The notes below the pieces were generated by a model. The model saw nothing but the letters and a program-made list of their open reading frames with translations, was not told where the DNA came from and searched no databases. A DNA stretch of 64,000 bases from a virus. Taxonomy: Duplodnaviria; Heunggongvirae; Uroviricota; Caudoviricetes. The translations under genes were made by a program, and so were the position numbers. Shown here piece after piece: positions 8,146-28,266 of this stretch (position 1 is the stretch's first letter; the number at the start of each line of letters is the position of its first letter). Location of the stretch: IMG/VR virus record IMGVR_UViG_3300021399_000141; one strand, 5' to 3'.

Positions 8146-8210
8146 TATGCTTGTTTTGTTTATATAAATATATATGAAAAAAGGTCCTAAAATTTAGGAC
8201 CCTTTCGCAA

Positions 8211-15904: not shown

Positions 15905-15971
15905 GTATTAAATTTATTTGCCTATATAATAAAAAAAAAAGAGACTTTTTACAGCCTTCTTAAAAATGTAG

Positions 15972-16045
15972 TTGCGGGAGGTGGGTTCGAACCACCGACC
16001 TCCAGGTTATGGGCCTGGCGAGCTACCACTGCTACTCATCCCACA
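15972..16045 (-). tRNA. tRNA-Met (anticodon CAT)
   Basis: T-arm GGTGG-TTCGAAC-CCACC, anticodon loop CCCATAA, acceptor with one GU. Confidence 0.55.
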
Positions 16046-16047
16046 AG

Positions 16048-16122
16048 TGGCCCCTGCAGGACTCGAACCTGCGACATCTTGCTTGTAAGGCAAGCGCTCT
16101 GAACCAACTGAGCTAAAGGGCC
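16048..16122 (-). tRNA. tRNA-Val (TAC)
   Basis: cloverleaf by eye; anticodon loop CTTACAA; D-arm GCTCAGTTGGTTCAGAGC. Confidence 0.7.
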
Positions 16123-16232
16123 TTATAGTACGTCTCTCCGTACTGTCACCGATCTCTATAGACGCGCGGTTCTCGGTCCGTTCGGTAGCGCCTATCCAAA
16201 TCCCGAACTTACATGTAGTAAACGTTGGATTG

Positions 16233-16305
16233 TAGCCCCAACGGGATTCGAACCCGTGTTTCCTCCGTGAAAGAGAGATGTCCTAGTCCACTAGACGATA
16301 GGGCT
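16233..16305 (-). tRNA. tRNA-Glu (TTC)
   Basis: T-arm ACGGG-TTCGAAT-CCCGT; anticodon loop CTTTCAC. Confidence 0.6.
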
Positions 16306-16539
16306 GTATAACATGTGGTAATCATCCACTAACGGTAAGTTTCGTACCGATGAAACTTTTACCGGAGCTTCATAAAACCTTGCTCTGTCTCGTAGAACTA
16401 CGGTATTCCATTTTGATTATCGGTGGAACTTCTCTATGACCGATATTCGTATTAGGTTTTAAGGTGTCATCCGACTTATGGTACCTAATTTAAGGAAACT
16501 GCGCCCTTCGTCTTTTCAGACTTCGCGAGTTTGTATTGA

Positions 16540-16742
16540 AACCTCTCCAACCACTCCCTTCGTGACATAGGTCAATATCCAAGGGCTGTTACTATCCTAG
16601 AGACCAATTCAAGCAACCGATATGTGAATAGTTGGATTTGTATTGAAACTTCTCCAGCTATACCCTTCGTGACATGGGTCAATATCCAAGGGCTGTTACT
16701 ATCCTAGAGACCAATTCAAGTAACCGGTGAGTGAATAGTTGG
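16540..16742. repeat. two tandem copies of an approximately 100-bp repeat
   Basis: copies 16540-16644 and 16646-16742 about 90 percent identical; each ends in gtgaatagttgg, also found at the adjacent tRNA-like gene. Confidence 0.7.
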
Positions 16743-16797
16743 GCTCGAACCAACGACATACCTTCTTTGGTGCTCTACCATCTGAGCTATATTCACT
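16731..16797 (-). ncRNA. tRNA-like gene lacking a canonical anticodon arm
   Basis: perfect acceptor GTGAATA/TATTCAC, D-arm GCTC-AGATGGTA-GAGC, T-arm GTTGG-TTCGAGC-CCAAC, but only 17 nt between D and T arms. Confidence 0.4.
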
Positions 16798-16869
16798 AAC
16801 TTACTTTATCCATAGATTTCATGAGACTTTAAGCGCGCTCTATCTCCTACGTCTATCCAATTTCAGCTG

Positions 16870-16956
16870 CGGAGAGTGCAGGATTCGAACCTGCGAGTCC
16901 CTTACGGGACTACTGGTTTAGCAAACCAGCGCCTTCAGCCACTCGGCCAACTCTCC
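16870..16956 (-). tRNA. tRNA-Ser (GCT)
   Basis: type II with long variable arm; anticodon loop TTGCTAA. Confidence 0.7.
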
Positions 16957-17067
16957 AAACAATACTCCAATACCCAATGGTTTGAATACTCAGGGACGAA
17001 CATTTGACTGTTCCAGATAATGATACAGGTTGCGATCCTATATGTCACATCTGCACTGGGATTCTGG

Positions 17068-17157
17068 CGGAGAGTGAGGGATTCGAACCCCCGGGACGCT
17101 CATCACGCCCACGAATTTTCAAGATTCGCACGATAAACCGGACTCTGACAACTCCCC
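17068..17157 (-). tRNA. tRNA-Ser (TGA)
   Basis: type II; anticodon loop CTTGAAA; promoter motif immediately upstream. Confidence 0.65.
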
Positions 17158-17164
17158 ATTTATT

Positions 17165-17210
17165 GTTCTTCTATATAATATATAAGAAAGAATGTCAAAA
17201 TTTTAGTGGG
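17165..17210 (-). promoter_or_regulatory. phage promoter motif CACTAAAATTTTGACA-N-TTATATATTATATAG upstream of tRNA-Ser
   Basis: member of the roughly 20-copy bipartite motif family; 30 nt upstream of tRNA 5-prime end. Confidence 0.5.
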
Positions 17211-17312
17211 AAAATAAAAAAAAAATAAGGTATTATCCTTCTAGGTCATCCATCAGAGGACGTTCATCCACTTCAAATACCGGTTCTCTTTTCATAATAA
17301 TCCTTTTTTTTG

Positions 17313-17386
17313 TGGACCCTGTGGGACTTGAACCCACGACCCCCTGCTTGCAAAGCAGGTGCTCTAGCCAACTGAGCTAAGGGCCC
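17313..17386 (-). tRNA. tRNA-Ala (TGC)
   Basis: anticodon loop TTTGCAA; D-arm GCTCAGTTGGCTAGAGC. Confidence 0.7.
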
Positions 17387-17537
17387 TTAGAGGCGGTGCA
17401 ACGACTTTTCTATCCGCCGTTAAGTCACTACGTCCGTTGCTGACGTCTGTGTCGTTCCTACTCCATCTTGTACACAGAAGTTCGCTGAAACTATCTTTTT
17501 GTTGCCACATTGTTAAGAGGTGTGGAGCCGCGAAAGG

Positions 17538-17610
17538 AGCCTCCTGTCAGACTCGAACTGACGACCTGTTCATTACAAGTGAACCGCTCTACCAACTGAG
17601 CTAAAGAGGC
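17538..17610 (-). tRNA. tRNA-Thr (TGT)
   Basis: anticodon loop CTTGTAA; T-arm GTCAG-TTCGAGT-CTGAC. Confidence 0.7.
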
Positions 17611-17614
17611 AAAA

Positions 17615-17636
17615 AGCAACCGGCGAAGGTTGCTCT
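17615..17636 (-). terminator. hairpin plus T-run immediately upstream of tRNA-Thr
   Basis: gcaaccggcgaaggttgc stem followed by TTTTT on minus strand. Confidence 0.4.
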
Positions 17637-18487
17637 ATGTCATCTGCCTGAGAACTTAGGCTTTGGTGATATCATTGCGATAGGGTTGGACCTATCTGTT
17701 CACACTCTGTATTTCTACAGCGTAGATACCATGCACATCAGTTTTGAAAAACTGCCAAACTCTTACTCAACATCGTCGTAAATTTCCTTTCTGTACCACC
17801 TACTTGCGGATTCGAAGGGTGCCCCCTCCTCGGTCGATACTTACTTGTACTCTTTTGTGATTTTCCTTGCGAGAATCTCACATCCTCGTATTGCAGAGGA
17901 ACAAGTGCATTTTAGATGTCAAGTGTCGCACACTTTTGCTGACCTATATTAAACTTTACTGATTCATTATCGTTGTCAGTAGTAGGGATCGAACCTACAG
18001 TCTAGTAACCATTTTTAAGAGATGTGGTGCGACCCAACGCATTCGTACCTTTTGGATACGACCCACGTAAACACCTCTCTGTCCTTCGTGCTTCCTACAG
18101 CACTATTAACTGTCCGTTTCGTTCAAATCATTTCTGATGTTAAACTAGTCCTTCCGTGCAGCAGCAATTGATTAGGAGTTCTTTCACCGCTACCAACTTA
18201 AACCTTTATTGGGTTTTTATCCCTCAAGTCAGGAGTTTCACCCGACTCACTCGTACTTCAGTCTCACCATTTGGCATTGACGCTGATCCCTTTTGCGGAT
18301 TCTCCCATACGAGTGATGTTCTAGTTCTTTTCCGTGGACAGGTTCTTTTATCAACCTGCGCTCTAACTGTGTTACTGGGTTAGGGCTTTATAGTATTACT
18401 ACTTTATCCTTAACAGCTCCGAAAGCGAACTGGAGACCTTCCGCGGACACTTCCGCTAGTCTAACAAGGTGGTTTATTTCCTTGTTC

Positions 18488-18524
18488 AATTATAATATAT
18501 AGAAATGATCAAAAATTTTAGACC
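18488..18524 (-). promoter_or_regulatory. phage promoter motif variant (TCTAAAATTTTTGATCA ... TATATATTATAAT)
   Basis: heads an ORF-free roughly 850-nt minus-strand region. Confidence 0.4.
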
Positions 18525-18548
18525 TGGTGTATTTTTTTTTTGATTTTT

Positions 18549-19070
18549 TTACATCTCGCGTGTTTTTGCCTTGATCAGTTCCGTCAGATGTCCATCTCCG
18601 TACCCAGTTACAGGCTGGAAACCCAGCTCCACTTGGATATTGTCTTCGTCACCCTCATCTACCCAGGCTCGACATAAGAATCCACCTGTACCGATCATAG
18701 CAAACGCCTCATCGTGGTCTGTATAATTGCACACCAGCTGTTGTAATGTATTGCGGATATTGTCTTTGGCACAGTCCAGGATATCCTTGCGAGTTGCAGG
18801 ACTGTTTACATATATCCATTTCATATCTTCCATGATTTTGTATACACGTTCCATGTTCATGCCAGATATGACTTGATCTACAATATCTTCAATCAAGGTC
18901 TGATATGTCTTTTGAGACTTTTCCTGCGACAACGGTTGCTTAGTGATGCTTTCACTAGTCGATGTGTTCTCTTCATCTAATTGATTAAGCATCAAAATGG
19001 CATCGTTGACATTGATCTTGTGATCGCGCAGCATGTTAAGTATGCTTGCTCGCTGTTCTTCCTTTGTCAT
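18549..19070 (-). CDS. hypothetical acidic protein
   Basis: ORF track 173 aa. Confidence 0.5.
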   Translation of the reverse strand: MTKEEQRASILNMLRDHKINVNDAILMLNQLDEENTSTSESITKQPLSQEKSQKTYQTLIEDIVDQVISGMNMERVYKIMEDMKWIYVNSPATRKDILDCAKDNIRNTLQQLVCNYTDHDEAFAMIGTGGFLCRAWVDEGDEDNIQVELGFQPVTGYGDGHLTELIKAKTREM

Positions 19071-19190
19071 AATGTATAATCATTTTCGTTGGTTTCGTTA
19101 TCGTATTCATGGACAGACTCGTAGTCATATCTGGTGCGTCTTTTCTTTCGAGTACACTTACGATAGAGTGCGAGTTCTTGTTCTGTCATA

Positions 19191-19406
19191 TTAGAATTCT
19201 ATTTTTCCTGCAGCTAATAAAGCATCGTGTTCACGTGCGATTTTATTAGTCTCTGAGTCAGGATCGTTCAGTTCGCGTACTATGTCTTCTGCGCGTCTAC
19301 GGACTTCATCGCGATAGTTAGGAGTGTCGTACGGGACGCAGTCACAGATGATACACATAGTGTTCTGTACTTCTGCCTCGAACTCTTCTGGTGTCATGTT
19401 GAGCAT
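19191..19406 (-). CDS. hypothetical small protein
   Basis: ORF track 71 aa. Confidence 0.4.
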   Translation of the reverse strand: MLNMTPEEFEAEVQNTMCIICDCVPYDTPNYRDEVRRRAEDIVRELNDPDSETNKIAREHDALLAAGKIEF

Positions 19407-19407
19407 A

Positions 19408-20325
19408 TTAGTAATCTGAATTTGCTACCTGACAAGTCAAGAGACCTAGTTCTCTCCACATCGACACACATTTGTTGCTGTCTTCGAAGACACATAGCAC
19501 GTTGTACTTGTCTTGTATCTGTTGTTCGTACATTTTGCGTTTGTATACTTCTCCTGAAGAGAAATCTCTCTGACTGCGAGTAATCAGCTCCCATCTGTTG
19601 TTCAGACCCTGTTTTGGGTCTTGTAACCATTTCAAGGTATCCCGTTGTGCACATTTGTTGCGACCAGTCAAGAAGAATACCTTGGTACCATTCGCCATGT
19701 GGAAGTTCAACAGATCACGCAAACGGGGATCGATCTTGTCCGTCAATAGTCTACCCCATTCGAACGGCTCTCGCCCCTGATGTAATGCCAACGTAGCATC
19801 TAGATCACAGATGATACAGAGCGGAAGGGTGGGTTCTGGTTGTCTGATGACTCTCTTGTCTGTGAGCTCGTCCCGGTACCTCTCATGATAGAACGTATCG
19901 TAGAACTTGGCAATAACATCTCGAGGAATGTATTCTTTGGCGCGAACTCCAATCTCTTTGTTGCGTTTGTAACTTTCAGCGTACGGAACATATAATTGCT
20001 TGATCACCAATTCCGCGCCTGTTTCGTTTGCGAGCTTTTCGAACTCCTGAATACGCCGTGGATTGATGTTGTAGGCATCGACAATGATGTCCCAGCTCAG
20101 ATGTGGATATCTGTTGAATTTATCCAGGATAGTTTGACGCTCGGTCTCTAGAACAGAGCCCAGGGTATTTATAATATAACCCTTATCCGTGGATTCCCAA
20201 CTCAGGTCTCTGGTGCTGATCATATGTACACAGATATCCGTAGGTGCCTCGTTCCAGTGTTTCCTTGCCCAAGTCGTCTTACCACTTCTGGGCGGGCCTT
20301 GTAATAGAATGATTTGTCTTTTCAT
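19408..20325 (-). CDS. pnk: polynucleotide 5-prime-kinase/3-prime-phosphatase (Pnkp-like)
   Basis: N-terminal Walker A GPPRSGKTTWA; C-terminal HAD motif I ICDLDATL (DxDxT) as in T4 Pnk phosphatase domain. Confidence 0.65.
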   Translation of the reverse strand: MKRQIILLQGPPRSGKTTWARKHWNEAPTDICVHMISTRDLSWESTDKGYIINTLGSVLETERQTILDKFNRYPHLSWDIIVDAYNINPRRIQEFEKLANETGAELVIKQLYVPYAESYKRNKEIGVRAKEYIPRDVIAKFYDTFYHERYRDELTDKRVIRQPEPTLPLCIICDLDATLALHQGREPFEWGRLLTDKIDPRLRDLLNFHMANGTKVFFLTGRNKCAQRDTLKWLQDPKQGLNNRWELITRSQRDFSSGEVYKRKMYEQQIQDKYNVLCVFEDSNKCVSMWRELGLLTCQVANSDY

Positions 20326-20756
20326 TGTTTTAGTTGGTTTTGGTATATCAACGCCAATATTTTGTTTTGATATTCGACTTTGAAGATCTGTTCTACAAAG
20401 TCTGCGAGATCGTTTGCTGCATTGATGACCTCTTGCGTCCCATAGGAATGATGATATTCCCAGGCGCGATCTACAATTTGAACGCAGCTTCCGTAACTCA
20501 AATCCTCATGATTAGAACATATCGTTGCCGCCAAATTGTCTCTGAACTTGCCTTCCTCTTGATGACGTTTGTTACGTTCTTGCAGTATAATGCGCTCTTC
20601 GGCTTGTCTGATCGCTTCGGCTACTTTGGCTTCTTCTTTACGATGTGCTTCGCGAATAGCATGTAACTCATCCAGATCGTGGATGTCGTTCAATTTTGAA
20701 ATGTCGTTATTTTGCATTTTTCTTATAGTTTTCAAGTAAACGAATGATGTCTTCAC
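20322..20756 (-). CDS. hypothetical protein
   Basis: ORF track 144 aa. Confidence 0.45.
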   Translation of the reverse strand: MKTSFVYLKTIRKMQNNDISKLNDIHDLDELHAIREAHRKEEAKVAEAIRQAEERIILQERNKRHQEEGKFRDNLAATICSNHEDLSYGSCVQIVDRAWEYHHSYGTQEVINAANDLADFVEQIFKVEYQNKILALIYQNQLKQ

Positions 20757-21066
20757 GTCCCACTGGATTAGATGAATGAGATGTGAACTCAGGAAGAGGG
20801 TTACCTGTCTCTATGCACATATCCACCAGATACTTAGCACAGTCATATCCTGTAGGACCAAGTCCGAGATCGTGATCGAAACAAACGAGATCAGGCCATG
20901 TCTCAAGAATAAGATGTTGGATAAACTCGTTCTTGCTTTTGACCCAGCTTACTACGCACTCGTTCAAAGGGACATCTAGGAACTCTTCCGCTGCGTAAGC
21001 AAGATAATCTTTCCACTCGGGGACGTTAGGGTCCCTCATGTCATCTATCCAAAGAATATGCTTCAT
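20707..21066 (-). CDS. hypothetical protein
   Basis: ORF track 119 aa. Confidence 0.45.
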   Translation of the reverse strand: MKHILWIDDMRDPNVPEWKDYLAYAAEEFLDVPLNECVVSWVKSKNEFIQHLILETWPDLVCFDHDLGLGPTGYDCAKYLVDMCIETGNPLPEFTSHSSNPVGREDIIRLLENYKKNAK

Positions 21067-21079
21067 ATATCTATATTGT

Positions 21080-21118
21080 TTTGTATATATAAATATATGA
21101 AAATAAGAAAAATATTTA
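21080..21118 (-). promoter_or_regulatory. phage promoter motif variant (CATTAAATATT ... TATATTTATATATAC)
   Basis: between tRNA-Arg and gene 20707..21066. Confidence 0.4.
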
Positions 21119-21139
21119 ATGAAAAAATAATGAGAAATG

Positions 21140-21213
21140 TGGCTCCGCTGGGACTCTAACCCAGGACCAACAGTTTAGAAGACTGCCGCTCTATACAACT
21201 GAGCTACGGAGTC
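21140..21213 (-). tRNA. tRNA-Arg (TCT)
   Basis: anticodon loop CTTCTAA; one acceptor mismatch. Confidence 0.6.
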
Positions 21214-21216
21214 TTG

Positions 21217-21609
21217 TCAGACAACCAGCCTATAGATATCATTCCACTCCAGTTCATCGTCTTCTATTGCGCTGATAGGTGTCTCACATCTATTAAGGAC
21301 GAATCCCATTCGTTGGTACCATTCTGCACAGAACTTTTCTGAATAATCATTAACTGCTATCTCAACAATACATTGCTCGATGGCATTCAGTTGTGCGTGT
21401 GCACGACACTCCTTAATAGCGCTTTCAATCATCAAAGTACCTAGTCCATGCTTTCGTAATGCAGGATTGACGTACAAATCAGACAACAGATAGGCTTCAT
21501 CACTAACGTATTTGGTGATTCGAATCATGGCGCCACCTGTACTCTCCATGATATAGATGCTTTCAGCATCTTTCCATTTTTGACAATGTGTTATCGTTTT
21601 GAAATTCAT
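21217..21609 (-). CDS. GNAT-family N-acetyltransferase embedded in the tRNA array
   Basis: motif LYVNPALRKHGLGTLMIESAIKEC (GNAT motif A-like); ORF-track N-terminal extension overlaps tRNA-His so start set at MNFKTITH. Confidence 0.55.
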   Translation of the reverse strand: MNFKTITHCQKWKDAESIYIMESTGGAMIRITKYVSDEAYLLSDLYVNPALRKHGLGTLMIESAIKECRAHAQLNAIEQCIVEIAVNDYSEKFCAEWYQRMGFVLNRCETPISAIEDDELEWNDIYRLVV

Positions 21610-21631
21610 ATTGAGAATAGTTTTGATGTGG

Positions 21632-21706
21632 GTGACCTGTGGGATTCGAACCCACGAAATACCAGAACCACAATCTGGCGCAATAGGCCTCTCTGCCAAA
21701 GCCACC
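21632..21706 (-). tRNA. tRNA-His (GTG)
   Basis: anticodon loop TTGTGGT; extra 5-prime G(-1) opposite discriminator C. Confidence 0.7.
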
Positions 21707-21781
21707 ATAAAAAGGAACACTGATTAACTGGTTCAATGTCCGAAACCTCGATAGGACTCGTACCATAGGTAAAAGCCTCTG

Positions 21782-21855
21782 AGCGGGAAACGAGATTCGA
21801 ACTCGTGACCCTCTGCTTGGAAGGCAGATGCTCTAACCAACTGAGCTACACCCGC
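21782..21855 (-). tRNA. tRNA-Gly (TCC)
   Basis: anticodon loop CTTCCAA. Confidence 0.6.
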
Positions 21856-21863
21856 ATAAAGAG

Positions 21864-21935
21864 TACCCCGACCAGGATTCGAACCCGGATCCTATGGTCC
21901 GTAGCCACATATTCTATCCGTTGAACTATCGGGGC
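21864..21935 (-). tRNA. tRNA-Arg (ACG)
   Basis: anticodon loop CTACGGA. Confidence 0.55.
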
Positions 21936-22294
21936 AAAAAAGATACCGAGCAAAGGTATAAAAGTTCGCCGAAGTGCTCTGAGACGTATACCATTGAATA
22001 GACTAATATACGACAGCTATCTGGTTGCACTTGTCCAGTTTGCGTTGTTGAGAGGCTGTTAAGTTTGTGGGCTAGGCCACGCTTTTGAGCATCAAGTTCT
22101 CGTTTTGTTGACTTCGGGCTATGTTCCTTGCGTCTCCCAGTGAGTGCTGCTCTGGTAACAATTCGATATTCCATGTGCTCTCTTTCAAGCAGATTAGCGA
22201 AGTGTTTGAAGTTCTATTCTTCAATCCTTACAAACTACCTGGATATCTATGAACTTACCCTTTTCTTGCGGTATCAATATATGTCAAAGATCTG

Positions 22295-22379
22295 TGCCCG
22301 AAGAGGGATTCGAACCCTCACGTCCATTACAGACACCACTCCCTCAAAGTGGCGCGTCTACCGATTCCGCCATCCGGGC
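22295..22379 (-). tRNA. tRNA-Leu (GAG)
   Basis: type II; anticodon loop TTGAGGG. Confidence 0.7.
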
Positions 22380-22392
22380 TTAATTTACTGTG

Positions 22393-22465
22393 CAGGGGCA
22401 GCAGGATTCGAACCCGCGACCTTTGGTTTTGGAGACCAACATTCTACCAACTGAACTATACCCCA
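22393..22465 (-). tRNA. tRNA-Trp (CCA)
   Basis: anticodon loop CTCCAAA; 1-72 mismatch. Confidence 0.55.
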
Positions 22466-22469
22466 GTAT

Positions 22470-22600
22470 AAATAATACATTTGACATGAGAATAGGAATC
22501 GAACCTATATCTGTCGTGTAACACCCATTTGCATACCGTACACTTTACTTCAGGAATTGTACATCTGAAGCGGCTCCCTTGCCGCGGTACTACCATTATA
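22470..22600 (-). ncRNA. atypical tRNA-like element with roughly 80-nt internal insertion
   Basis: perfect acceptor CATGAGA/TCTCATG, D-arm and T-arm ATAGG-TTCGATT-CCTAT, but about 80 nt of hairpin-rich sequence between D and T arms. Confidence 0.3.
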
Positions 22601-22625
22601 CGATCTCATGATTGATATTGAATGT

Positions 22626-22670
22626 TCTTCTATAATAATATATAAAAAACATTCTCTGATTTTTAGTGGA
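22626..22670 (-). promoter_or_regulatory. phage promoter motif (CCACTAAAAATCAGAG ... TTATATATTATTATAG)
   Basis: CACTAAA to TTATATAT spacing 23 nt, as in other copies. Confidence 0.5.
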
Positions 22671-22686
22671 TCATTTAATTTTTGTG

Positions 22687-22761
22687 TTGGCCCTGTGGGA
22701 TTTGAACCCACGTCCCTCGGTTTATGAGACCGCCGCTACGCACCAGCCGAGCTCAGAGCCA
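22687..22761 (-). tRNA. tRNA with CAT anticodon (Met or Ile-lysidine)
   Basis: anticodon loop CTCATAA. Confidence 0.55.
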
Positions 22762-22768
22762 ATTATTG

Positions 22769-22842
22769 TCCCGAGAACTGGGTTCGAACCAGTGACCTCG
22801 GCATTATGAGTGCCGCGCTCTGACCAGCTGAGCTATCTCGGG
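22769..22842 (-). tRNA. tRNA-Met (CAT)
   Basis: perfect cloverleaf; loop CTCATAA. Confidence 0.7.
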
Positions 22843-22871
22843 ATTTGAGAGTCTGAATCTTCTATGCCTGT

Positions 22872-23156
22872 CTACGCCATTTTGTTATGTGTTTGTATAA
22901 GTTCTCTATCATTAGGAAAATGTTTTAAGTATCTTGTCACCATGTCCTCGTTCTCAATGACATATGTTTTGAAGAACTCTTTTTTAGATTCTTCCCACAT
23001 TTCTACGCGTAGTCTTAAAGCAGGCTTGAAAGTTTCTTCTTTGTGATTCTCACAAGTCTCCGTAGGAAGGAGTATCTTCCATTCATCTTTATGAAGACAA
23101 CATGGATCACCGTCCCATATCTTGAAATATTTGCAATATAGACAAATGTTTTCCAT
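22872..23156 (-). CDS. small Cys-rich (zinc-finger-like) protein
   Basis: ORF track 94 aa, CxxC...CC...C..H pattern. Confidence 0.4.
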   Translation of the reverse strand: MENICLYCKYFKIWDGDPCCLHKDEWKILLPTETCENHKEETFKPALRLRVEMWEESKKEFFKTYVIENEDMVTRYLKHFPNDRELIQTHNKMA

Positions 23157-23158
23157 AG

Positions 23159-23232
23159 CAGCCCCACCGAGGATCGAACTCGGATTTCCACCTTGAGAGA
23201 GTGACGTCCTGTACCGGTTAGACGACAGGGCC
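23159..23232 (-). tRNA. tRNA-Glu (CTC), tentative
   Basis: T-arm CCGAG-TTCGATC-CTCGG; loop CTCTCAA; acceptor with several GU pairs. Confidence 0.4.
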
Positions 23233-23570
23233 AGATGCGACTGCTGTCAGCTCCTGTCCGTCGCGAGACCGTATGCTCTATACTTGTTGGGCATACTACA
23301 ACTCTACCTGTCTTTCCAGGTGTCTAGCCTATTGACGAGATAGGACTTTGGTCGAGATATCAGGAGTCGAACCTGTACCATTGCTGATAAAGAGGCTATT
23401 AGACTAGTATTATTCACCTCTCACCTCCCAGACCCATATGGGCGTGCGCCGTACACTATATCCCGTAATTTAGTCGCACTATCGCAGGACTATAAGCTCC
23501 CGTGCGCCTGACCTAAGCAGTACTGAAGAATTGTCAGGAGGTCCTATGTACAGCTTGAACCTATTCTTTG

Positions 23571-23643
23571 TGACCAATCAGGGAGTCGAACCCTGCTACC
23601 CAGTTTTGCAGACTGGTGCCTAAACCGCCCGGACCCATTGGTC
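23571..23643 (-). tRNA. tRNA-Cys (GCA)
   Basis: perfect acceptor GACCAAT/ATTGGTC; loop CTGCAAA. Confidence 0.65.
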
Positions 23644-23648
23644 ATTGG

Positions 23649-23721
<73 letters not shown>

Positions 23722-23936
23722 ATGGTCAGGACAGAAGTTTTTACGGGTTATTCTTCGACCTCTCCTACTCTCTAGAAGCGCTCTATTTACATACATCAGT
23801 ATTTTCACTTCAACGTTTGCAACCATTTCAGCTTCTATAACTTTCATGTTTCAGAATCCAACAAACCGTTTCATATTGGCGTCCCGCAACTACTAATGAA
23901 TGTCTTCTTCTTCCCCGTGCCTGCGCTATATCCTGG

Positions 23937-24009
23937 AGCGGAAAACGGGACTCGAACCCGCGACCTGTGCCTTGGCAAGGCACCGCTCTACCAGCTGAGC
24001 TATTTCCGC
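23937..24009 (-). tRNA. tRNA-Gly (GCC), CCA encoded
   Basis: loop TTGCCAA. Confidence 0.7.
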
Positions 24010-24013
24010 GTGG

Positions 24014-24090
24014 CGCACATCAGAGGACTCGAACCTCAATCTCCCAAAACTCCTTTCGGGCGTAATTTCCAGTTATACTATCCGTGCAAA
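24014..24090 (-). ncRNA. tRNA-like gene with anticodon arm replaced by a 7-bp tetraloop hairpin; CCA encoded
   Basis: T-arm and acceptor present, but the central region is CCCGAAA-GGAG-TTTTGGG, so no 7-nt anticodon loop. Confidence 0.4.
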
Positions 24091-24093
24091 TGG

Positions 24094-24166
24094 AGCCCAG
24101 AGTCAGACTCGAACTGACGACCTCTTCCTTACCATGGAAGTGCTCTACCAACTGAGCTATCTGGGC
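24094..24166 (-). tRNA. tRNA-Thr (GGT), CCA encoded
   Basis: perfect acceptor GCCCAGA/TCTGGGC; loop ATGGTAA. Confidence 0.7.
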
Positions 24167-24171
24167 TTATC

Positions 24172-24244
24172 GTCTCCGAACCGGACTTGAACCGGCGCCC
24201 TCTCCCCTCGTCCGGGAGCGTTCTACCAACTGAACTATCGGGAC
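24172..24244 (-). tRNA. tRNA-like with non-canonical anticodon loop GGACGAG (possible ACG)
   Basis: good D-arm GTTC-AGTTGGTA-GAAC and T-arm GCCGG-TTCAAGT-CCGGT; loop lacks U33; two acceptor mismatches. Confidence 0.35.
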
Positions 24245-24419
24245 TAGTTGCCTCTCATCAACACGAGGATTTACAAGTTTTGAAACCCCTAAACCTTTTC
24301 TGTTCACTTACCACAACAGCGTGTAGCTCATCTATAGCTCCTCAAGATGACTTGGCAGTCCTTTTTCTATCGCGCAGGACACAAGGCTTTGCGCTAGACA
24401 CGAGTCTTTTTACCGGTTG

Positions 24420-24493
24420 CGGGGCTAGGGGGATTCGAACCCACCGTCAGAAGATCGACAGTCTACCATACTAACCAACTGTACTATAGCCTC
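24420..24493 (-). tRNA. tRNA-Asp (GTC)
   Basis: loop CTGTCGA. Confidence 0.5.
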
Positions 24494-24509
24494 ATCTCAG
24501 GTACTGAGG

Positions 24510-24833
24510 TCATTCAATAACGACCTCGTACTGTGTTCTGGTGATTTTGCGATTCGACTGAATAAGATAGTCGCCTCGTCTTACATTTACTTCAAATGAA
24601 CTCCGCGCGGTCTTGACAGGTCTACCGTGTTTCAAATCATAGACATAGGTGATTTGCATAGGATTGTTTGAGATAATATCAATCCTGACTACATCCCTGA
24701 ATATGACCGTCTGTTCATTTACTACTTCTACTCGTGGATCTTGAGTCCATCCTGAATTGGTTTTCTGCACAGAACATGCATTCAATCCAAGCACTATGAA
24801 CAAGACTGCGAGTGCGTTGATAATTTTTTTCAT
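24510..24833 (-). CDS. putative lipoprotein
   Basis: MKKIINALAVLFIVLGLNACS lipobox; ORF-track N-terminal extension overlaps tRNA-Leu and is discarded. Confidence 0.5.
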   Translation of the reverse strand: MKKIINALAVLFIVLGLNACSVQKTNSGWTQDPRVEVVNEQTVIFRDVVRIDIISNNPMQITYVYDLKHGRPVKTARSSFEVNVRRGDYLIQSNRKITRTQYEVVIE

Positions 24834-24858
24834 ATTTTTATATTCTTGATAATTTGTG

Positions 24859-24938
24859 TACCCAGAGCGGGACTCGAACCCGCACCCTTTCGGACCTGAT
24901 TTTGAGTCAGGCGCGTCTACCGATTCCGCCATCTGGGC
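24859..24938 (-). tRNA. tRNA-Leu (CAA)
   Basis: type II; loop CTCAAAA. Confidence 0.7.
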
Positions 24939-25120
24939 ATGAAATAAGAGCTAGTACATGTGAATGCTCTACCTTGAACTATCCGGCCAGGTCGGCCATA
25001 CCAGGACTTGAACCCAGATCTTTCACTATGCATTTCACTCTCTTTTGTGTGAAGCTTAACACGACTTGACGACACACTCAACTACTAACTATCATCGTGC
25101 ATTCAAGTTTTCGTGTGGAC

Positions 25121-25187
25121 ACATGTGGGATTCGAACCCCTCCGTCACATTGCAAATGTGAAGTGCTAGCCGTTACACTACATGGCC
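25121..25187 (-). pseudogene. degenerate tRNA-Ala(TGC)-like gene
   Basis: perfect anticodon arm TCACA-TTTGCAA-TGTGA but weak acceptor and 3-bp T stem. Confidence 0.3.
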
Positions 25188-25279
25188 CGTATCCTATTCT
25201 TGATTATACTGGTGAATAGTGTAATATCCAGTTCCTTTTCGGAAGCAGGGTAGTTTTATTTCGTACCCTAGGAATTTGT

Positions 25280-25348
25280 TGCGGTCGTAGGAATCGAACC
25301 TCGTCTCAGGGTTATGAGCCCCACATGCTACCATTACACCACCACCGC
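25280..25348 (-). tRNA. initiator-like tRNA-fMet (CAT)
   Basis: anticodon stem with three consecutive G-C pairs, TGGGG-CTCATAA-CCCTG, as in bacterial initiator tRNA; short (69 nt). Confidence 0.5.
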
Positions 25349-25359
25349 GATATTCATTG

Positions 25360-25432
25360 TGGACCGGGACGGGATCGAACCGCCGACGCCAGGCTCTTCA
25401 GGCCTGCGCTCTACCAACTGAGCTACCGGTCC
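25360..25432 (-). tRNA. tRNA-Phe (GAA)
   Basis: perfect cloverleaf; loop CTGAAGA. Confidence 0.75.
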
Positions 25433-25597
25433 ATTGTAAAGGATTTTGAATGCTGATGCGCTTCTATCCAATGTCACATCATTTAAGATTTGTTGAGTGG
25501 GTTTTACCCTAAGAGTATTGACCTTACTCTCACTCCGGACTCCGTCTTTAGTTACCGTACACACTCTGCCACAGGTCAAATGACAAATATCCTTTGG

Positions 25598-25670
25598 TGA
25601 CCCCGCCGGGGCTCGAACCCGGGACCCCCTCATTAAAAGTGAGGTGCTCTACCAACTGAGCTACGAGGTC
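25598..25670 (-). tRNA. tRNA-Lys (TTT), CCA encoded
   Basis: loop CTTTTAA. Confidence 0.7.
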
Positions 25671-25818
25671 ATATAAAAGTGAGCCCTTACGTGTCTCACT
25701 GGATACACAGATCTGCTAAATCCATTTGGTGTATCAACGTTGAGGCTTCACCCACCGAGCATCCGCTCGCCTCGCAGTGATCTCGCATAACGACCCTGCT
25801 CAACCCCCTCAACTGTTG

Positions 25819-25900
25819 TGGGCCTGGTGGGACTCGAACCCACACCTCTTATGAGACCAGATCCTAAGTCTGGCGCGTCTGCCAATTCCGCCACAAGCCC
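25819..25900 (-). tRNA. tRNA-Leu (TAG)
   Basis: type II; loop CTTAGGA. Confidence 0.7.
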
Positions 25901-25920
25901 TTAAAAAAATCTAACCTGAG

Positions 25921-26006
25921 TGGGAGTGGAGGGATTCGAACCCCCTGCGTTTCTAATGTACTAGGTTTACAGTCTAGCGCCCATCCACCATCTGAGCAGC
26001 ACTCCC
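25921..26006 (-). tRNA. tRNA-Tyr (GTA)
   Basis: type II; loop CTGTAAA with A-C closing mismatch. Confidence 0.6.
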
Positions 26007-26084
26007 ATGAGCAATACGTTTTGTACCAATTATATTCAAAGACCAATTTCAGGCCAACTATCACTTGGAAGTCTGACTAAATGC

Positions 26085-26111
26085 TTCCGCGCGAGGTGGA
26101 CTTGAACCACT
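26085..26111 (-). pseudogene. tRNA 3-prime fragment (T-arm plus acceptor only)
   Basis: GTGG-TTCAAGT-CCAC then CTCGCGC; only 16 nt to the next tRNA, so no room for a 5-prime half. Confidence 0.35.
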
Positions 26112-26126
26112 ATCTTATTGCTTTTG

Positions 26127-26197
26127 TTGCCCTTCCAAGACTCGAACTCAGATTCCAGGGACCAGAACCCTGTGTGCTACCATTACACCAAAAGGCA
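26127..26197 (-). tRNA. tRNA-Gln (CTG)
   Basis: perfect anticodon arm CAGGG-TTCTGGT-CCCTG. Confidence 0.55.
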
Positions 26198-26552
26198 ATA
26201 TTAGGTTTTTTAAGTTGTTTTCTCAACTAATGGAGACGCCGTGAGTTTTTTAGATGAGATATAGAATCTCACACGGGGTCTGAACGTCACTGTCACCCCT
26301 CCTACCCGGAATAAGACTATAAATTTGGTTTTTGTAAGTTGTTTTCTCAACTATTGGTGGCGAACTACGACTTTCACGTAACCTCCACCGTATGGACAGT
26401 GGCGCACTGTGTACGTACACTCTACCAACTCCTCATAATAAAACACACGCGTTATTGTTTATCACTTTGGAGAACCAAGAACTAAAACTTCACGAATGAA
26501 TAATAGTTCGTTTTCACAGTAGGTTCCTATGTTCATTATGCTAATTCGCGAG

Positions 26553-26623
26553 TTGCCCTACCACGATTCGAACGTGGATTCTCTGAACCAAAATCAGATG
26601 TTCTGCCATTGAACTATAGGGCA
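26553..26623 (-). tRNA. tRNA-Gln (TTG)
   Basis: perfect cloverleaf; loop TTTTGGT. Confidence 0.75.
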
Positions 26624-26687
26624 GTATTGTGAGGTTTCGTTTTTTGATCGCCTGGAATTTTATCCCCACTAAAGAAAACAGGAGCTG

Positions 26688-26761
26688 TCGGCTGGGCTGG
26701 ACTTGAACCAGCGACCCCCGCCTTATCAGAGCGGTGCTCTAACCAACTGAGCTACCAGCCG
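26688..26761 (-). tRNA. tRNA-Ile (GAT)
   Basis: perfect acceptor; loop CTGATAA. Confidence 0.7.
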
Positions 26762-26768
26762 TTCATTG

Positions 26769-26841
26769 CCGTCTTTCGAGGGCTCGAACCTCGCATCTAC
26801 TGGTAGAATCCAGCGCTTCGTCCATGCAAAGCTTAAAGACG
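26769..26841 (-). tRNA. tRNA, anticodon unresolved (6-nt loop ATTCTA)
   Basis: perfect acceptor CGTCTTT/AAAGACG and T-arm CGAGG-TTCGAGC-CCTCG; anticodon stem CTGG/CCAG closes a 6-nt loop. Confidence 0.4.
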
Positions 26842-26895
26842 TACCTCTCATATAAAAACCTTGATAGGAACTTCCACGAGATAAAGTTTTTGGTG

Positions 26896-26925
26896 TGACC
26901 GCAACAGGAGTCGAACCTGCATTTT
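26896..26925 (-). pseudogene. tRNA 3-prime fragment
   Basis: GCAGG-TTCGACT-CCTGT then TGCGGTC with no complementary 5-prime acceptor nearby. Confidence 0.3.
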
Positions 26926-27052
26926 GTACTCGCTTCTTTTACCTCGCCAAAGGTGATATCGTGTTTCAGATACCGGAAACTTTCCATATACCTCATCAGC
27001 AGTACATCATAGTTGGCGCTACAATGCCTTATCTTATGCGATCATTTTATTG

Positions 27053-27125
27053 CGGAGTTGACGGGAGTCGAACCCGTTCCGAACTGCGTGACAGGCAGAC
27101 ATCTTAGCCGTTTGACCTCAACTCC
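27053..27125 (-). tRNA. tRNA-Asp (GTC), second copy
   Basis: perfect acceptor GGAGTTG/CAACTCC; loop CTGTCAC. Confidence 0.55.
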
Positions 27126-27292
27126 AAAAAACTGATGCTTACACGAAGATCGATCAGACTCACATCACTTCTCTTCTCCTTTTGTTATGCGTCCATAACA
27201 CTCCTCCATTATAGGAACTCCGAAAGTGGAATTTCAACCACTCGCAGCGGATTCACCATGTTCCTAAAGGTCTTGTTCCCTCAGCATCATTG

Positions 27293-27364
27293 CGGGGAGT
27301 GCGGGATTCGAACCCACAACCCACTGGTTAACAGCCAGTTGCTCTACCATTGAGCCAACTCCCC
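27293..27364 (-). tRNA. tRNA-Asn (GTT)
   Basis: perfect anticodon arm ACTGG-CTGTTAA-CCAGT. Confidence 0.7.
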
Positions 27365-27520
27365 AAAGATTGACATTCTCATTACCATACGTTAGAGTTA
27401 TTTCAAGCGCTACGACCACCATCCTCCTTTACTCCGTTCGTTGTTATATAGTTAACATCAAACTTCAAACGTTTCGAGTAACTTTACGTGATTTGCTCTT
27501 CATCGCAATGTCAATTGTTG

Positions 27521-27595
27521 TAGGGTAGACAGGATTCGAACCTGCGACCCCTTGATCCCAAATCAAGTGCTCTAACCGGACTGAGCCACTACCCT
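27521..27595 (-). tRNA. tRNA-Pro (TGG)
   Basis: loop TTTGGGA; D-arm GCTC-AGTCCGGTTA-GAGC. Confidence 0.7.
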
Positions 27596-27871
27596 GTTGA
27601 TAACCCAACTCCTAAAGACTATTGCTAGTCTAACGCTCGTTGCGTCAAAGCGTTTGTGTCTTATCTGACTATCCTTCACAGGTCATCAGATGTTATATAA
27701 ATAGTAATCTCCTTCGGGCATCATTTACAACGTGATATAGTATAGGGTCTTAAAACCTTGTTGACATAGATGCTATCGTTCGTCTCGTTATAATGGAGAT
27801 TCTATAAATGTTTCTTTTTTGCTATTCCCAATATGTCAAAGATCGTTTCGTATTAGAACTCTGTTTTGTTC

Positions 27872-27913
27872 TTCTACAATAATATATAAGAAACTTTTTA
27901 TAAATTTTAGTGA
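27872..27913 (-). promoter_or_regulatory. phage promoter motif (GTCACTAAAATTTATAAAAAG ... TTATATATTATTGTAG)
   Basis: spacing 23; heads an approximately 290-nt leader preceding tRNA-Pro. Confidence 0.5.
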
Positions 27914-27949
27914 CTTATATATTTTTTTTTTTTAATTTTTTTTGCGCAG

Positions 27950-28035
27950 TACCGCAAGTGGGACTCGAACCCACACGAACCCTTCGGTTCATCAGATTTT
28001 AAGTCTGACGCGTCTACCAATTCCGCCATTACGGC
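27950..28035 (-). tRNA. tRNA-Leu (TAA)
   Basis: type II; loop CTTAAAA; first tRNA of the array on the minus strand. Confidence 0.7.
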
Positions 28036-28266
28036 AAATAAAAAAGCCCCAATCATTAGATTGCGGCTTGTATCTTGGTAGTTAGTTAAGGTTACGTGTA
28101 TATATCGATGTGACTTACAAGCCGCAGTATATTAGAGAGCACATAGATACCAGCCCAAGAAATTTGGACGTGCATCATGTTGTTTCTTAATATTGCAGGG
28201 TTGTAATCGTGTCATATCAATTCTATAATAAATAGGTCGTTCTAAATTTTAACTAATATATAAGAA

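Follow-up and report, generated by a model that had tools for sequence, protein, structure and literature searches.

Complete huge phages encode up to 67 tRNAs (PMC7162821), jumbo phages up to 70 per genome (PMC13037316), and tRNA-rich subgroups of jumbo phages 18-22 on average (PMC7824862); mycobacteriophage Rizal encodes 36 (PMC10264068). The published reading of the huge and jumbo phage arrays is redirection or protection of translation (PMC7162821; PMC7824862). Jumbo-phage tRNA arrays together with RNA repair have been proposed as counter-defence (PMC7824862), and phage tRNAs evade anticodon nucleases, PARIS and retrons (PMC10264068, PMC11464382, PMC11555353). Here we describe an island of 39 tRNA or tRNA-like genes, interrupted by a GOLLD RNA and a predicted RNA-repair cassette, in a 64,000-nucleotide stretch of the IMG/VR virus record IMGVR_UViG_3300021399_000141 (Caudoviricetes). 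This whole stretch is called the window, and positions refer to it. An earlier note on this DNA had placed the complement at the upper end for any phage. That is overstated, because 67-70 tRNAs per genome have been published; 39 is high but not extreme.

ARAGORN with default settings finds 36 tRNA genes in the whole window, all on the minus strand, all within 15971-28035 and none elsewhere. The Rfam tRNA model RF00005 gives 35 matches on the whole window at its gathering threshold of 29 bits and, with laxer filters on 15-29 kb, 37 matches of at least 29 bits (32.8-74.7 bits, E down to 3e-15). Taken together, the two methods give 39 minus-strand tRNA or tRNA-like genes within 12,065 bp, with 30 distinct anticodons; the ARAGORN default calls alone cover all 20 amino acids. 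The earlier note had listed at least 34 canonical minus-strand tRNAs by anticodon, had stated that every amino acid is covered, and had named ARAGORN among the checks, with far fewer genes or an incomplete amino-acid set as the adverse outcome. All 34 are reproduced exactly by ARAGORN plus Rfam, and ARAGORN returns 36 genes and 20 of 20 amino acids. The "about 8 further" elements of that note correspond to Ala-TGC copy 2, Arg-ACG copy 2, three aberrant tRNA-like genes and three 3'-half fragments. The tRNA genes are listed here with their identities to the closest relative, IMG/VR contig IMGVR_UViG_3300021255_002784 (197.5 kb, hereafter L004).

15971..16045, minus: tRNA-Met-like (CAT), copy a, C33 for U33, weak D stem, loop cccataa; ARAGORN, Rfam 34.5 bits
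16047..16122, minus: tRNA-Val (TAC); ARAGORN, Rfam 74.7 bits; absent from L004
16232..16305, minus: tRNA-Glu (TTC); ARAGORN, Rfam 58.8 bits; L004 ortholog 92% identical
16869..16956, minus: tRNA-Ser (GCT); ARAGORN, Rfam 61.2 bits
17065..17157, minus: tRNA-Ser (TGA), CCA encoded, tail gcca; ARAGORN, Rfam 35.7 bits; 95% identical in L004
17312..17386, minus: tRNA-Ala (TGC), copy 1, within the GOLLD-carrying indel; ARAGORN, Rfam 71.8 bits; absent from L004
17536..17610, minus: tRNA-Thr (TGT), beginning 35 nucleotides (nt) past the GOLLD 3' end, T arm the same as in Thr-GGT; ARAGORN, Rfam 69.9 bits; absent from L004
21139..21213, minus: tRNA-Arg (TCT); ARAGORN, Rfam 61.5 bits
21630..21705, minus: tRNA-His (GTG); ARAGORN, Rfam 49.2 bits
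21781..21855, minus: tRNA-Gly (TCC); ARAGORN, Rfam 69.7 bits
21863..21935, minus: tRNA-Arg (ACG), copy 1, canonical; ARAGORN, Rfam 57.1 bits; 97% identical in L004
22294..22379, minus: tRNA-Leu (GAG); ARAGORN, Rfam 52.2 bits
22392..22465, minus: tRNA-Trp (CCA); ARAGORN, Rfam 65.4 bits; 97% identical in L004
22686..22761, minus: tRNA (CAT), copy b, elongator type, Met or Ile2; ARAGORN, Rfam 45.4 bits; 97% identical to the sole CAT tRNA of L004
22768..22842, minus: tRNA (CAT), copy c, elongator type, with an anticodon arm that we take to be like that of E. coli elongator Met; ARAGORN, Rfam 70.6 bits
23158..23232, minus: tRNA-Glu (CTC); ARAGORN, Rfam 47.6 bits
23570..23643, minus: tRNA-Cys (GCA); ARAGORN, Rfam 39.9 bits
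23646..23721, minus: tRNA-Lys (CTT), CCA encoded; ARAGORN, Rfam 69.3 bits
23934..24009, minus: tRNA-Gly (GCC), CCA encoded; ARAGORN, Rfam 71.9 bits
24091..24166, minus: tRNA-Thr (GGT), CCA encoded; ARAGORN, Rfam 69.7 bits; L004 ortholog is Thr-TGT
24419..24493, minus: tRNA-Asp (GTC), copy 1; ARAGORN, Rfam 50.0 bits
24858..24938, minus: tRNA-Leu (CAA); ARAGORN, Rfam 61.5 bits
25115..25187, minus: tRNA-Ala (TGC), copy 2, 3-bp T stem; ARAGORN, Rfam 32.8 bits; 100% identical in L004
25278..25349, minus: initiator tRNA-fMet (CAT), copy d, weak T stem; ARAGORN, Rfam 44.7 bits; assigned by sequence and structure
25359..25432, minus: tRNA-Phe (GAA); ARAGORN, Rfam 66.8 bits; 96% identical in L004
25595..25670, minus: tRNA-Lys (TTT), CCA encoded; ARAGORN, Rfam 71.4 bits
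25818..25900, minus: tRNA-Leu (TAG); ARAGORN, Rfam 59.2 bits
25920..26006, minus: tRNA-Tyr (GTA), long variable arm; ARAGORN, Rfam 39.0 bits
26126..26197, minus: tRNA-Gln (CTG); ARAGORN, Rfam 53.3 bits
26552..26623, minus: tRNA-Gln (TTG); ARAGORN, Rfam 65.6 bits
26687..26761, minus: tRNA-Ile (GAT); ARAGORN, Rfam 71.1 bits; L004 has a different Ile-GAT gene in this position
27052..27125, minus: tRNA-Asp (GTC), copy 2; Rfam 52.5 bits, loop CUGUCAC
27292..27364, minus: tRNA-Asn (GTT); ARAGORN, Rfam 74.7 bits
27520..27595, minus: tRNA-Pro (TGG); ARAGORN, Rfam 70.6 bits; 100% identical in L004
27949..28035, minus: tRNA-Leu (TAA), first array gene in the direction of transcription; ARAGORN, Rfam 60.3 bits

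Judged from their sequences, 33 genes combine a 7-nt anticodon loop, U33, a purine at 37, four intact arms and a discriminator base, as expected of functional decoders. Five genes depart from this pattern: 16730-16796 (no anticodon arm), 24011-24087 (8-nt loop), 26768-26841 (6-nt loop), 24172-24244 (G33) and 15971-16045 (C33). Ala-TGC copy 2 is borderline, with a T stem of 3 bp, yet it is 100% conserved in L004. The island thus appears to hold about 33-35 working tRNA genes, which are co-oriented with the surrounding genes and in many cases lie just 1-12 nt apart.

The CAT anticodons required separate treatment. The gene at 25278-25349 bears the typical marks of a bacterial initiator tRNA-fMet, namely a C1xA72 mismatch, a GGG:CCC anticodon stem, the ends 5' CGCGG and 3' CCGCAAC, and GGGCUCAUAACCC. 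Two elongator-type CAT genes (22686-22761 and 22768-22842) may be Met or Ile2, which the tools used do not separate; one of them is probably a lysidine-dependent Ile2, since AUA makes up 32% of Ile codons. A Val-CAC gene called at 27052-27125 by relaxed ARAGORN is a misfold and was rejected, the Rfam covariance alignment giving the loop CUGUCAC and hence Asp-GTC; G73, G2:C71, G10 and C38 are visible in the sequence of this tRNA-Asp. ARAGORN returned no credible tmRNA, plus-strand tRNA or intron-containing tRNA.

CCA is encoded in six of the 39 genes (Ser-TGA, Lys-CTT, Gly-GCC, the 8-nt-loop element, Thr-GGT and Lys-TTT) and missing from the other 33. The earlier note had named five of the six rightly and overlooked Ser-TGA (17065-17157). 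C74 is encoded by 35 of the 36 window tRNA genes, 28 of 29 in L004, all 9 in the more distant contig L007, and 165 of 254 in other phage arrays; the full CCA follows in just 5 of the 36, and the commonest trinucleotide after the discriminator is CAA. This pattern suggests a particular 3'-processing or RNase P recognition route.

Decoding capacity was assessed against 13,494 codons from 56 confident phage genes in the window. A Watson-Crick reader is present for 57% of codons, a standard wobble reader (G:U, U:G, I34) for 31%, and extended four-way U34 wobble is needed for GCY, CCY, GUY and UCY, together 9.1%. AUA (24 per 1000; 2.4% of codons) needs a lysidine-modified CAT tRNA, and CGG (0.3%) has no reader. 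If U34 wobbles four ways and one CAT tRNA is a lysidine Ile2, 60 of the 61 sense codons have a reader, which amounts to 99.7% of all codons counted. The comparison of phage codon usage with the anticodon set, proposed as a check in the earlier note, therefore gives a near-complete match. It is not a strictly complete 61-codon set, with CGG unread and GCY, CCY, GUY and UCY relying on extended U34 wobble. The optional C34 isoacceptors (Lys-CTT, Glu-CTC, Leu-CAA, Gln-CTG) occur only for AAG, GAG, TTG and CAG, which rank 1, 2, 3 and 5 in usage among the 13 NNG codons. Equally high ranks are reached by just 2 of the 715 possible subsets, and the complement therefore looks tuned to the phage's own demand.

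The array is interrupted for 3.5 kb (17611-21138) by a region, missed in the earlier note, that contains a GOLLD RNA and the following protein cassette, in which ORF stands for open reading frame.

18549..19070, minus: ORF of 173 aa, conserved in L004; no Pfam, PHROG or NCBIfam match
19191..19406, minus: ORF of 71 aa; no Pfam match
19408..20325, minus: T4-type Pnkp, 305 aa, with N-terminal P-loop kinase and C-terminal HAD phosphatase; PHROG 505 E 5.9e-56, Pfam HAD_PNKP 2e-32 and AAA_33
20322..20756, minus: ORF of 131-144 aa; no family match
20707..21066, minus: cREC_REC protein (cyclic-phosphate-processing receiver domain); Pfam PF20274 E 8.4e-19, 68.5 bits against a cutoff of 27

Over its full length Pnkp can be aligned to residues 2-301 of T4 Pnkp 1LTQ (E 1.3e-22), and it keeps both motifs, GPPRSGKT (GxxxxGKT) and DLDAT (DxDxT). 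The cREC gene, of a family described in PMC7824862, lies two genes upstream of Pnkp, in an RNA-repair neighbourhood. Further RNA-repair-type proteins are encoded on the minus strand outside the array: a HAD_SAK_2 protein ("Swiss Army Knife" RNA-repair HAD, 43959-44477), two AAA_33 / PSTK-KTI12-like (PSTK/PNK-like) P-loop kinases (7658-8260 and 32565-33083) and a calcineurin-like metallophosphoesterase (48093-48887). No NCBIfam or PHROG match passed the cutoffs to give a specific name to the unassigned ORFs of the array or to the extra kinases.

We consider it probable that the island provides a phage-borne supply of tRNAs together with tRNA end-healing, and that this sustains phage translation during shortage or cleavage of host tRNAs. 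Codon compensation and counter-defence are not mutually exclusive, and our confidence attaches to the combined statement. From the genes, anticodons, codon match, conservation and protein domains we infer how the island would be expressed, processed and charged, and for what reason it would be selected. The co-oriented genes would be transcribed as polycistronic precursors, as suggested by their single strand, their 1-12 nt spacers and the missing CCA in 33 of 39 genes. The precursors would be cut by host RNase P and 3' nuclease or processing enzymes; for most tRNAs the CCA-adding enzyme of the host would then finish the 3' end, and host synthetases would charge them. The set would then supply one reader for essentially every phage codon, including an initiator and a probable Ile2 for the frequent AUA. 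Phage protein synthesis would become independent of the size, composition and integrity of the host tRNA pool, which may be limiting through codon mismatch, host shut-off or cleavage by a host anticodon nuclease. Where anticodon nucleases have cut, leaving 2',3'-cyclic-phosphate and 5'-OH ends, Pnkp and cREC would heal these, and the healed tRNAs would be resealed by a ligase that is not among the window proteins identified. GOLLD would be a co-oriented passenger or partner, of a kind that typically travels with phage tRNA islands.

The earlier note had proposed near-autonomy from host tRNA pools or resistance to tRNA-targeting defences. For the tRNA pool as such, near-autonomy is borne out. 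Beyond the pool it is not: the 64 kb yielded neither an aminoacyl-tRNA synthetase nor a CCA-adding enzyme, a TilS/TadA-type modifier or an RNA ligase, and autonomy is limited further by the 33 of 39 genes without CCA, the unread CGG, and the 9.1% of codons on extended U34 wobble. Resistance gains contextual support from the T4-type Pnkp and cREC inside the array and from the HAD_SAK_2 protein, kinases and metallophosphoesterase elsewhere in the window.

Several points weigh against this combined role. Dependence on the host for aminoacyl-tRNA synthetases, CCA-adding enzyme, TilS and TadA remains. Among about 60 proteins scanned in the window no RNA ligase (Rnl1, Rnl2, RtcB) was found, a result that leaves the rest of the roughly 207-kb genome unsearched; the sole ligase is of DNA-ligase type, and the repair pathway is therefore incomplete as seen in the window. 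The initiator tRNA (25278-25349) has a T stem of 3 bp only. The Val and fMet genes are absent from L004, and a complete set is therefore not essential in this lineage. Five or six array members are aberrant (6-nt loop, 8-nt loop, no anticodon arm, G33, C33, weak stems) and may be dead. The host signal, as read from homologs of the leucine-rich-repeat proteins described below, is ambiguous among Eubacteriales, Oscillospiraceae and Prevotellaceae.

The best surviving alternative is pure codon-usage compensation, in which the tRNAs top up isoacceptors that are poor in the host relative to phage demand and have no anti-tRNase role. This is the classical hypothesis and the one most widely accepted (PMC10264068). 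It agrees with the way the set tracks phage codon use, with C34 isoacceptors only for the most-used NNG codons, and with the frequency of AUA (24 per 1000) alongside spare CAT genes. Coverage of nearly every codon, common ones included, exceeds its needs, however, and it leaves aside the end-healing enzymes Pnkp and cREC embedded in the island. We regard compensation alone as possible but unlikely, and continue to favour tRNA supply combined with end-healing.

Comparison with L004 shows how the island changes. L004 is collinear with the window, its Pnkp is 80% identical, and aligned blocks are about 75-87% identical. It carries 29 tRNAs in the same order and the Pnkp cassette in the same place, and GOLLD is absent; a collinear array lacking GOLLD indicates that the island gains and loses genes. 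Region 18486-17163, with GOLLD, Thr-TGT and Ala-TGC, is a 1.3-kb indel between the two. Of the 39 window genes, 23 have a syntenic counterpart in L004 at 79% identity or more. Pro-TGG and Ala-TGC copy 2 are 100% identical, and Trp, Arg-ACG copy 1, CAT copy b, Phe and Ser-TGA are 95-97% identical. These values exceed the roughly 80% of the surrounding aligned blocks, which points to purifying selection on the tRNA genes. Asp copy 2 and Lys-CTT are also absent from L004, and Ile, Gln-TTG and His are replaced there by non-orthologous genes of the same specificity. Two ortholog pairs show what their sequences suggest is anticodon remodelling in a phage array. The ortholog of Thr-GGT (24091-24166) in L004 (6282-6355) is Thr-TGT, with the entire anticodon arm exchanged compensatorily and the rest nearly identical, and the ortholog of Arg-ACG copy 2 (24172-24244) in L004 (6208-6277) is called Pro-CGG and differs by a 3-nt loop indel. 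The Pnkp cassette lies inside the array in L004 and L005. In the more distant L007, Pnkp is 41% identical and lies 4.5 kb from a cluster of nine tRNAs that includes an amber suppressor.

Such turnover could also reflect a mobile collection of tRNA and GOLLD cassettes, an island grown by horizontal capture whose members are partly selfish or neutral passengers, many making no contribution to fitness. Besides the 1.3-kb indel of GOLLD, Thr-TGT and Ala-TGC and the three non-orthologous replacements, this is favoured by the presence of fragments, a tandem duplication and aberrant copies, by the 88% identity of Ala-TGC copy 1 to GOLLD-adjacent Ala-TGC genes in unrelated contigs, and by GOLLD-tRNA modules in at least 77 unrelated IMG/VR loci. 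Strong purifying selection acts on the core members, however (95-100% identical, where their surroundings are at roughly 80%), and the set is non-redundant, close to exactly one gene for each anticodon needed, a result not to be expected from random capture. We find this account decidedly doubtful, and selection for tRNA supply and end-healing the better explanation of the core.

The aberrant genes, fragments and duplicated spacer are as follows.

16730..16796, minus: tRNA-like, 67 nt, acceptor, D and T arms intact, anticodon arm about 10 nt; Rfam 45.9 bits, ARAGORN ps80 only, fold
24011..24087, minus: tRNA-like, 8-nt anticodon loop (aaGGAGtt), acceptor-stem mismatches, CCA encoded; ARAGORN ps90 only
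24172..24244, minus: tRNA-Arg-like (ACG), copy 2, G33, mismatched acceptor end; ARAGORN, Rfam 38.6 bits
26768..26841, minus: tRNA-like, 6-nt anticodon loop (attcta); ARAGORN "???"
23351..23378, minus: tRNA 3'-half fragment (T arm and 3' acceptor strand); repeat family D3, sequence
26079..26126, minus: tRNA 3'-half fragment (T arm and 3' acceptor strand); repeat family D16, sequence
26895..26922, minus: tRNA 3'-half fragment (T arm and 3' acceptor strand); repeat family D3, sequence
16530..16742, minus: tandem duplication, 2 x about 107 nt, 91% identity, beginning inside the 3' end of the anticodon-arm-less gene; repeat family D13

The 8-nt-loop element has no Rfam tRNA match, and the 6-nt-loop element none even at E<=10. 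It has been considered whether these aberrant genes are functional non-decoding RNAs rather than pseudogenes, serving as decoys for tRNases or defence sensors, as processing punctuation, or as a quadruplet (+1) decoder. They lie 1-6 nt from canonical tRNAs in tight clusters and are for that reason probably co-transcribed with them. The 8-nt-loop element retains its encoded CCA, and the 6-nt-loop element, 82% identical in L004, keeps its acceptor and T arms there, drift being confined to the anticodon arm. On the other hand, no counterpart of the arm-less gene was found in L004, the 8-nt-loop element is not conserved there either, and the loop indel between Arg-ACG copy 2 and its L004 ortholog is what decay predicts. 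We give a functional role of this kind little credence.

An AT-rich spacer motif occurs in three copies (17175-17209, 22623-22688 and 27867-27932), reading on the minus strand roughly CCACTAAAA...TTTCTTATATATTAT; a fixed-spacing pattern search for it returned no match. The copies could be phage promoters or processing signals inside the array. Bacteroidota-type promoters (TTTG...TAnnTTTG) receive no support: 4 sites were seen where 2.1 were expected, and none of the four lies on the coding strand. For sigma-70-like sites a consensus scan, and no more than that, shows modest enrichment in the array (46 against 29 +/- 5.8).

The GOLLD region comprises three elements.

17645..18079, minus: GOLLD RNA, conserved 3' domain; Rfam RF02032 104.5 bits, E 4.6e-27, model positions 1-416 of 416
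17611..17633, minus: hairpin GCAACC-TTCGCC-GGTTGC followed by TTTTT, between GOLLD and tRNA-Thr; read from the sequence
18080..18548, minus: presumed variable GOLLD 5' domain, 469 nt; no minus-strand ORF of 50 aa or more

The match to the GOLLD model is below the gathering threshold (104.5 against 150 bits), though full length, and membership was therefore tested independently. The conserved motifs AGCAAAAGU and CUCGCAAGG lie 58 nt apart in the window, the modal spacing of the family: across 120 IMG/VR loci (1.06 Mb) retrieved with this motif pair, the spacing is 58 nt in 54 and 54 nt in 38. With the window 3' domain as query, nhmmer matched 59 of the 120 loci. An RNAalifold consensus of the window RNA and nine other GOLLDs has 74 pairs, 50 of them with compensatory changes. 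By these signs 17645-18079 is a divergent GOLLD RNA, supported by covariation. A complete GOLLD RNA measures about 800 nt with its 5' domain and forms a 14-mer nanocage. The published GOLLD 5' half is poorly conserved (PMC12286853). The region 18080-18548 fits such a variable 5' domain, because it has no nhmmer homologs and no minus-strand ORF of that size, its only ORF of at least 50 aa being a 75-aa plus-strand frame (18156-18383). The 17611-17633 hairpin looks like a terminator or processing element.

Association with tRNAs is a property of the family. At least one tRNA is carried by 77 of the 120 loci, and each of the 254 tRNAs there runs in the same direction as GOLLD. Of 59 loci, 44 have a tRNA beginning no more than 150 nt from the GOLLD 3' end, and in eight of these it is Thr-TGT. 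The GOLLD linker of the window contains a hairpin like a tRNA T arm; this feature and a tRNA right at the 3' end are typical traits of the family. The unrelated contigs in which Ala-TGC copy 1 has 88% identical counterparts are those of the closest GOLLDs, with Ala-TGC downstream of the RNA. IMG/VR contig L024 has a complete tRNA-Ser(TGA) at 10969-11041 nested in the linker region of its GOLLD (10902-11375), an arrangement mentioned in PMC12286853. Amber-suppressor tRNAs (CTA) occur in related or GOLLD-bearing contigs (L007 13117-13196, L046 8838-8923, L070 1412-1497, L110 2494-2569) and suggest stop-codon recoding in the phages concerned. No suppressor tRNA was found in the window, which reads well in the standard code.

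A general linkage between GOLLD and Pnkp was considered and rejected. Searching the 120 GOLLD loci by tblastn with three Pnkp queries and one cREC query returned no Pnkp and one cREC, and any GOLLD-Pnkp link would therefore be lineage-specific. Among the other window proteins none recurs at these loci, the exception being one match to the nucleoside deoxyribosyltransferase. Prevotella phage Lak-B2 (MK250021.1) has a divergent GOLLD-like RNA at 11881-12307, matching the full model with 37.5 bits (E 8.8e-7). A Pnkp homolog (15174-16082) follows about 2.9 kb downstream on the same strand, and no tRNA lies within 12 kb. The pairing of GOLLD and Pnkp thus recurs in two distant lineages. A more elaborate proposal makes the whole an integrated tRNA-protection module, in which the GOLLD nanocage RNA, co-transcribed with flanking, covalently joined tRNAs, would together with Pnkp/cREC and the aberrant tRNA-like RNAs shelter or present tRNAs, or decoy them, during host tRNase attack. 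We consider this highly speculative and very improbable, and prefer to treat GOLLD as a passenger or partner in an island that serves tRNA supply and end-healing.

The window encodes a T4-type portal, NrdD, ThyX, an ATP-dependent DNA ligase, an amidase endolysin and three BspA-type leucine-rich-repeat proteins, and 75 of its 87 ORFs share their strand with the tRNAs. A Pnkp protein identical to that of the window is encoded on ENA ERZ12302813 NODE_37, a metagenome contig of 207,057 bp, from which 20.9 kb were retrieved that match the window exactly. The exact protein is also present in a sheep-rumen run of Shi et al. 2014 (PMC4158751). The nearest portals are those of uncultured huge phages (41% identity) and of Sphingomonas phage PAU, Tenacibaculum phage PTm1 and the Prevotella Lak phages (31-35%). 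A megablast of the 12-kb array against INPHARED gave single-tRNA matches only and no close DNA relative. The source is an uncultured rumen jumbo phage with a T4-type portal, distant kin of the PAU, PTm1, Lak and "huge phage" lineages. That the array belongs to a bacterial chromosome or plasmid, or to a chimeric assembly, hardly deserves consideration even though tRNA arrays with GOLLD occur in Mycobacterium genomes too (PMC6582537), for the same-strand flanks encode the portal, endolysin, NrdD, ThyX and DNA ligase, the arrangement is repeated in sheep-rumen assemblies and in a second, independent IMG/VR viral contig of 197.5 kb, and the window has no ribosomal or housekeeping genes.

Three further proteins are encoded within the array.

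21217..21609, minus: GNAT acetyltransferase, 130 aa, between tRNA-Arg and tRNA-His; Pfam Acetyltransf_7 2.3e-8, Acetyltransf_1 1.6e-7
22872..23156, minus: ORF of 94 aa, Cys-rich; no Pfam match
24510..24833, minus: ORF of 107 aa with a lipoprotein-type signal peptide (LGLNAC); no Pfam match

Just upstream of the array lies a small Cys-rich ORF (28552-28836, minus) whose similarity to the ferredoxin-thioredoxin reductase catalytic chain is weak and does not reach the cutoff (E 0.0045). Just downstream lies a 500-aa membrane protein with SPFH/Band-7 and flotillin domains (30505-32007, minus), unusual in a phage. The BspA-type leucine-rich-repeat proteins (43134-43946, 59024-60259 and 60297-62381, all minus; one with DUF7666) could serve host adhesion and are a weak host clue. 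The closest cellular homologs of the LRR_5/DUF7666 protein come from ruminant-gut metagenome-assembled genomes, of Eubacteriales/Oscillospiraceae at 55-62% identity and of Prevotellaceae at 39%. A nucleotide-metabolism set, also on the minus strand, comprises a nucleoside 2-deoxyribosyltransferase (39590-40054), ThyX (51009-51926) and an anaerobic NrdD with ATP-cone (51977-54184), and is consistent with an anaerobic host and possibly with modified nucleotides.

The island shares with the huge and jumbo phage arrays (Al-Shayeb et al. 2020, PMC7162821; Iyer et al. 2021, PMC7824862) single-strand tRNA clusters, genomes above 200 kb and the presence of PNK-HAD and cREC, and the window portal is 31-41% identical to huge-phage portals. 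It differs in that its 39 genes are above the subgroup means of 18-22 and below the maxima of 67-70, and in that no phage aminoacyl-tRNA synthetase or CCA-adding enzyme is seen in this 64 kb. Phage T4 has 8 tRNAs, and its pseT gene lies outside the tRNA cluster. In the window, by contrast, Pnkp lies inside the array, and an Rnl1, Rnl2 or RtcB ligase was not found. Likeness to the Pnkp/Rnl1 repair that T4 uses against PrrC (PMC7824862) consists in the encoding of both tRNAs and predicted end-healing, by a Pnkp that is alignable end to end and has both catalytic motifs. Mycobacteriophages of cluster C1 (Rizal/Bxz1-type, about 36 tRNAs, PMC10264068) are similar in gene number and in near-complete amino-acid coverage, and in both cases the tRNAs are proposed to replace host tRNAs cut by anticodon nucleases. 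They belong to an unrelated phage lineage with another host, and tmRNA was not found in the window. Phage T5 carries about two dozen tRNAs and, to our knowledge, no GOLLD. Its multi-tRNA region resembles the island, and its tRNAs neutralise tRNA-cleaving defences experimentally, tRNA-Lys acting against PARIS (PMC11464382) and tRNAs against retron effectors (PMC11555353); this is evidence from T5, the window being known from its sequence. The GOLLD arrays of Mycobacterium genomes and phages (PMC6582537; Morgado et al. 2020, as cited in PMC12286853) likewise have GOLLD among about 30 same-strand tRNAs, a GOLLD linker that includes a tRNA-like piece, and a tRNA immediately at the GOLLD 3' end, whereas here the setting is a rumen jumbo phage and a divergent GOLLD (104.5 against 150 bits) adjoins a Pnkp/cREC cassette.

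Both associations, of tRNA arrays with genes for RNA repair and of GOLLD with tRNA islands, have been described before, so that the island is a rich example rather than a new kind and current understanding is unchanged. It is among the more complete phage tRNA complements, 30 anticodons reading 99.7% of codons, and comes from a poorly known rumen jumbo-phage lineage. In the genome pair, with 39 and 29 genes, phage tRNAs can be seen to be gained, lost, replaced and remodelled in their anticodons. With a tRNA island, end-healing enzymes and the GOLLD nanocage RNA adjoining one another, the locus offers a test case for why phages carry tRNAs and for what GOLLD does.

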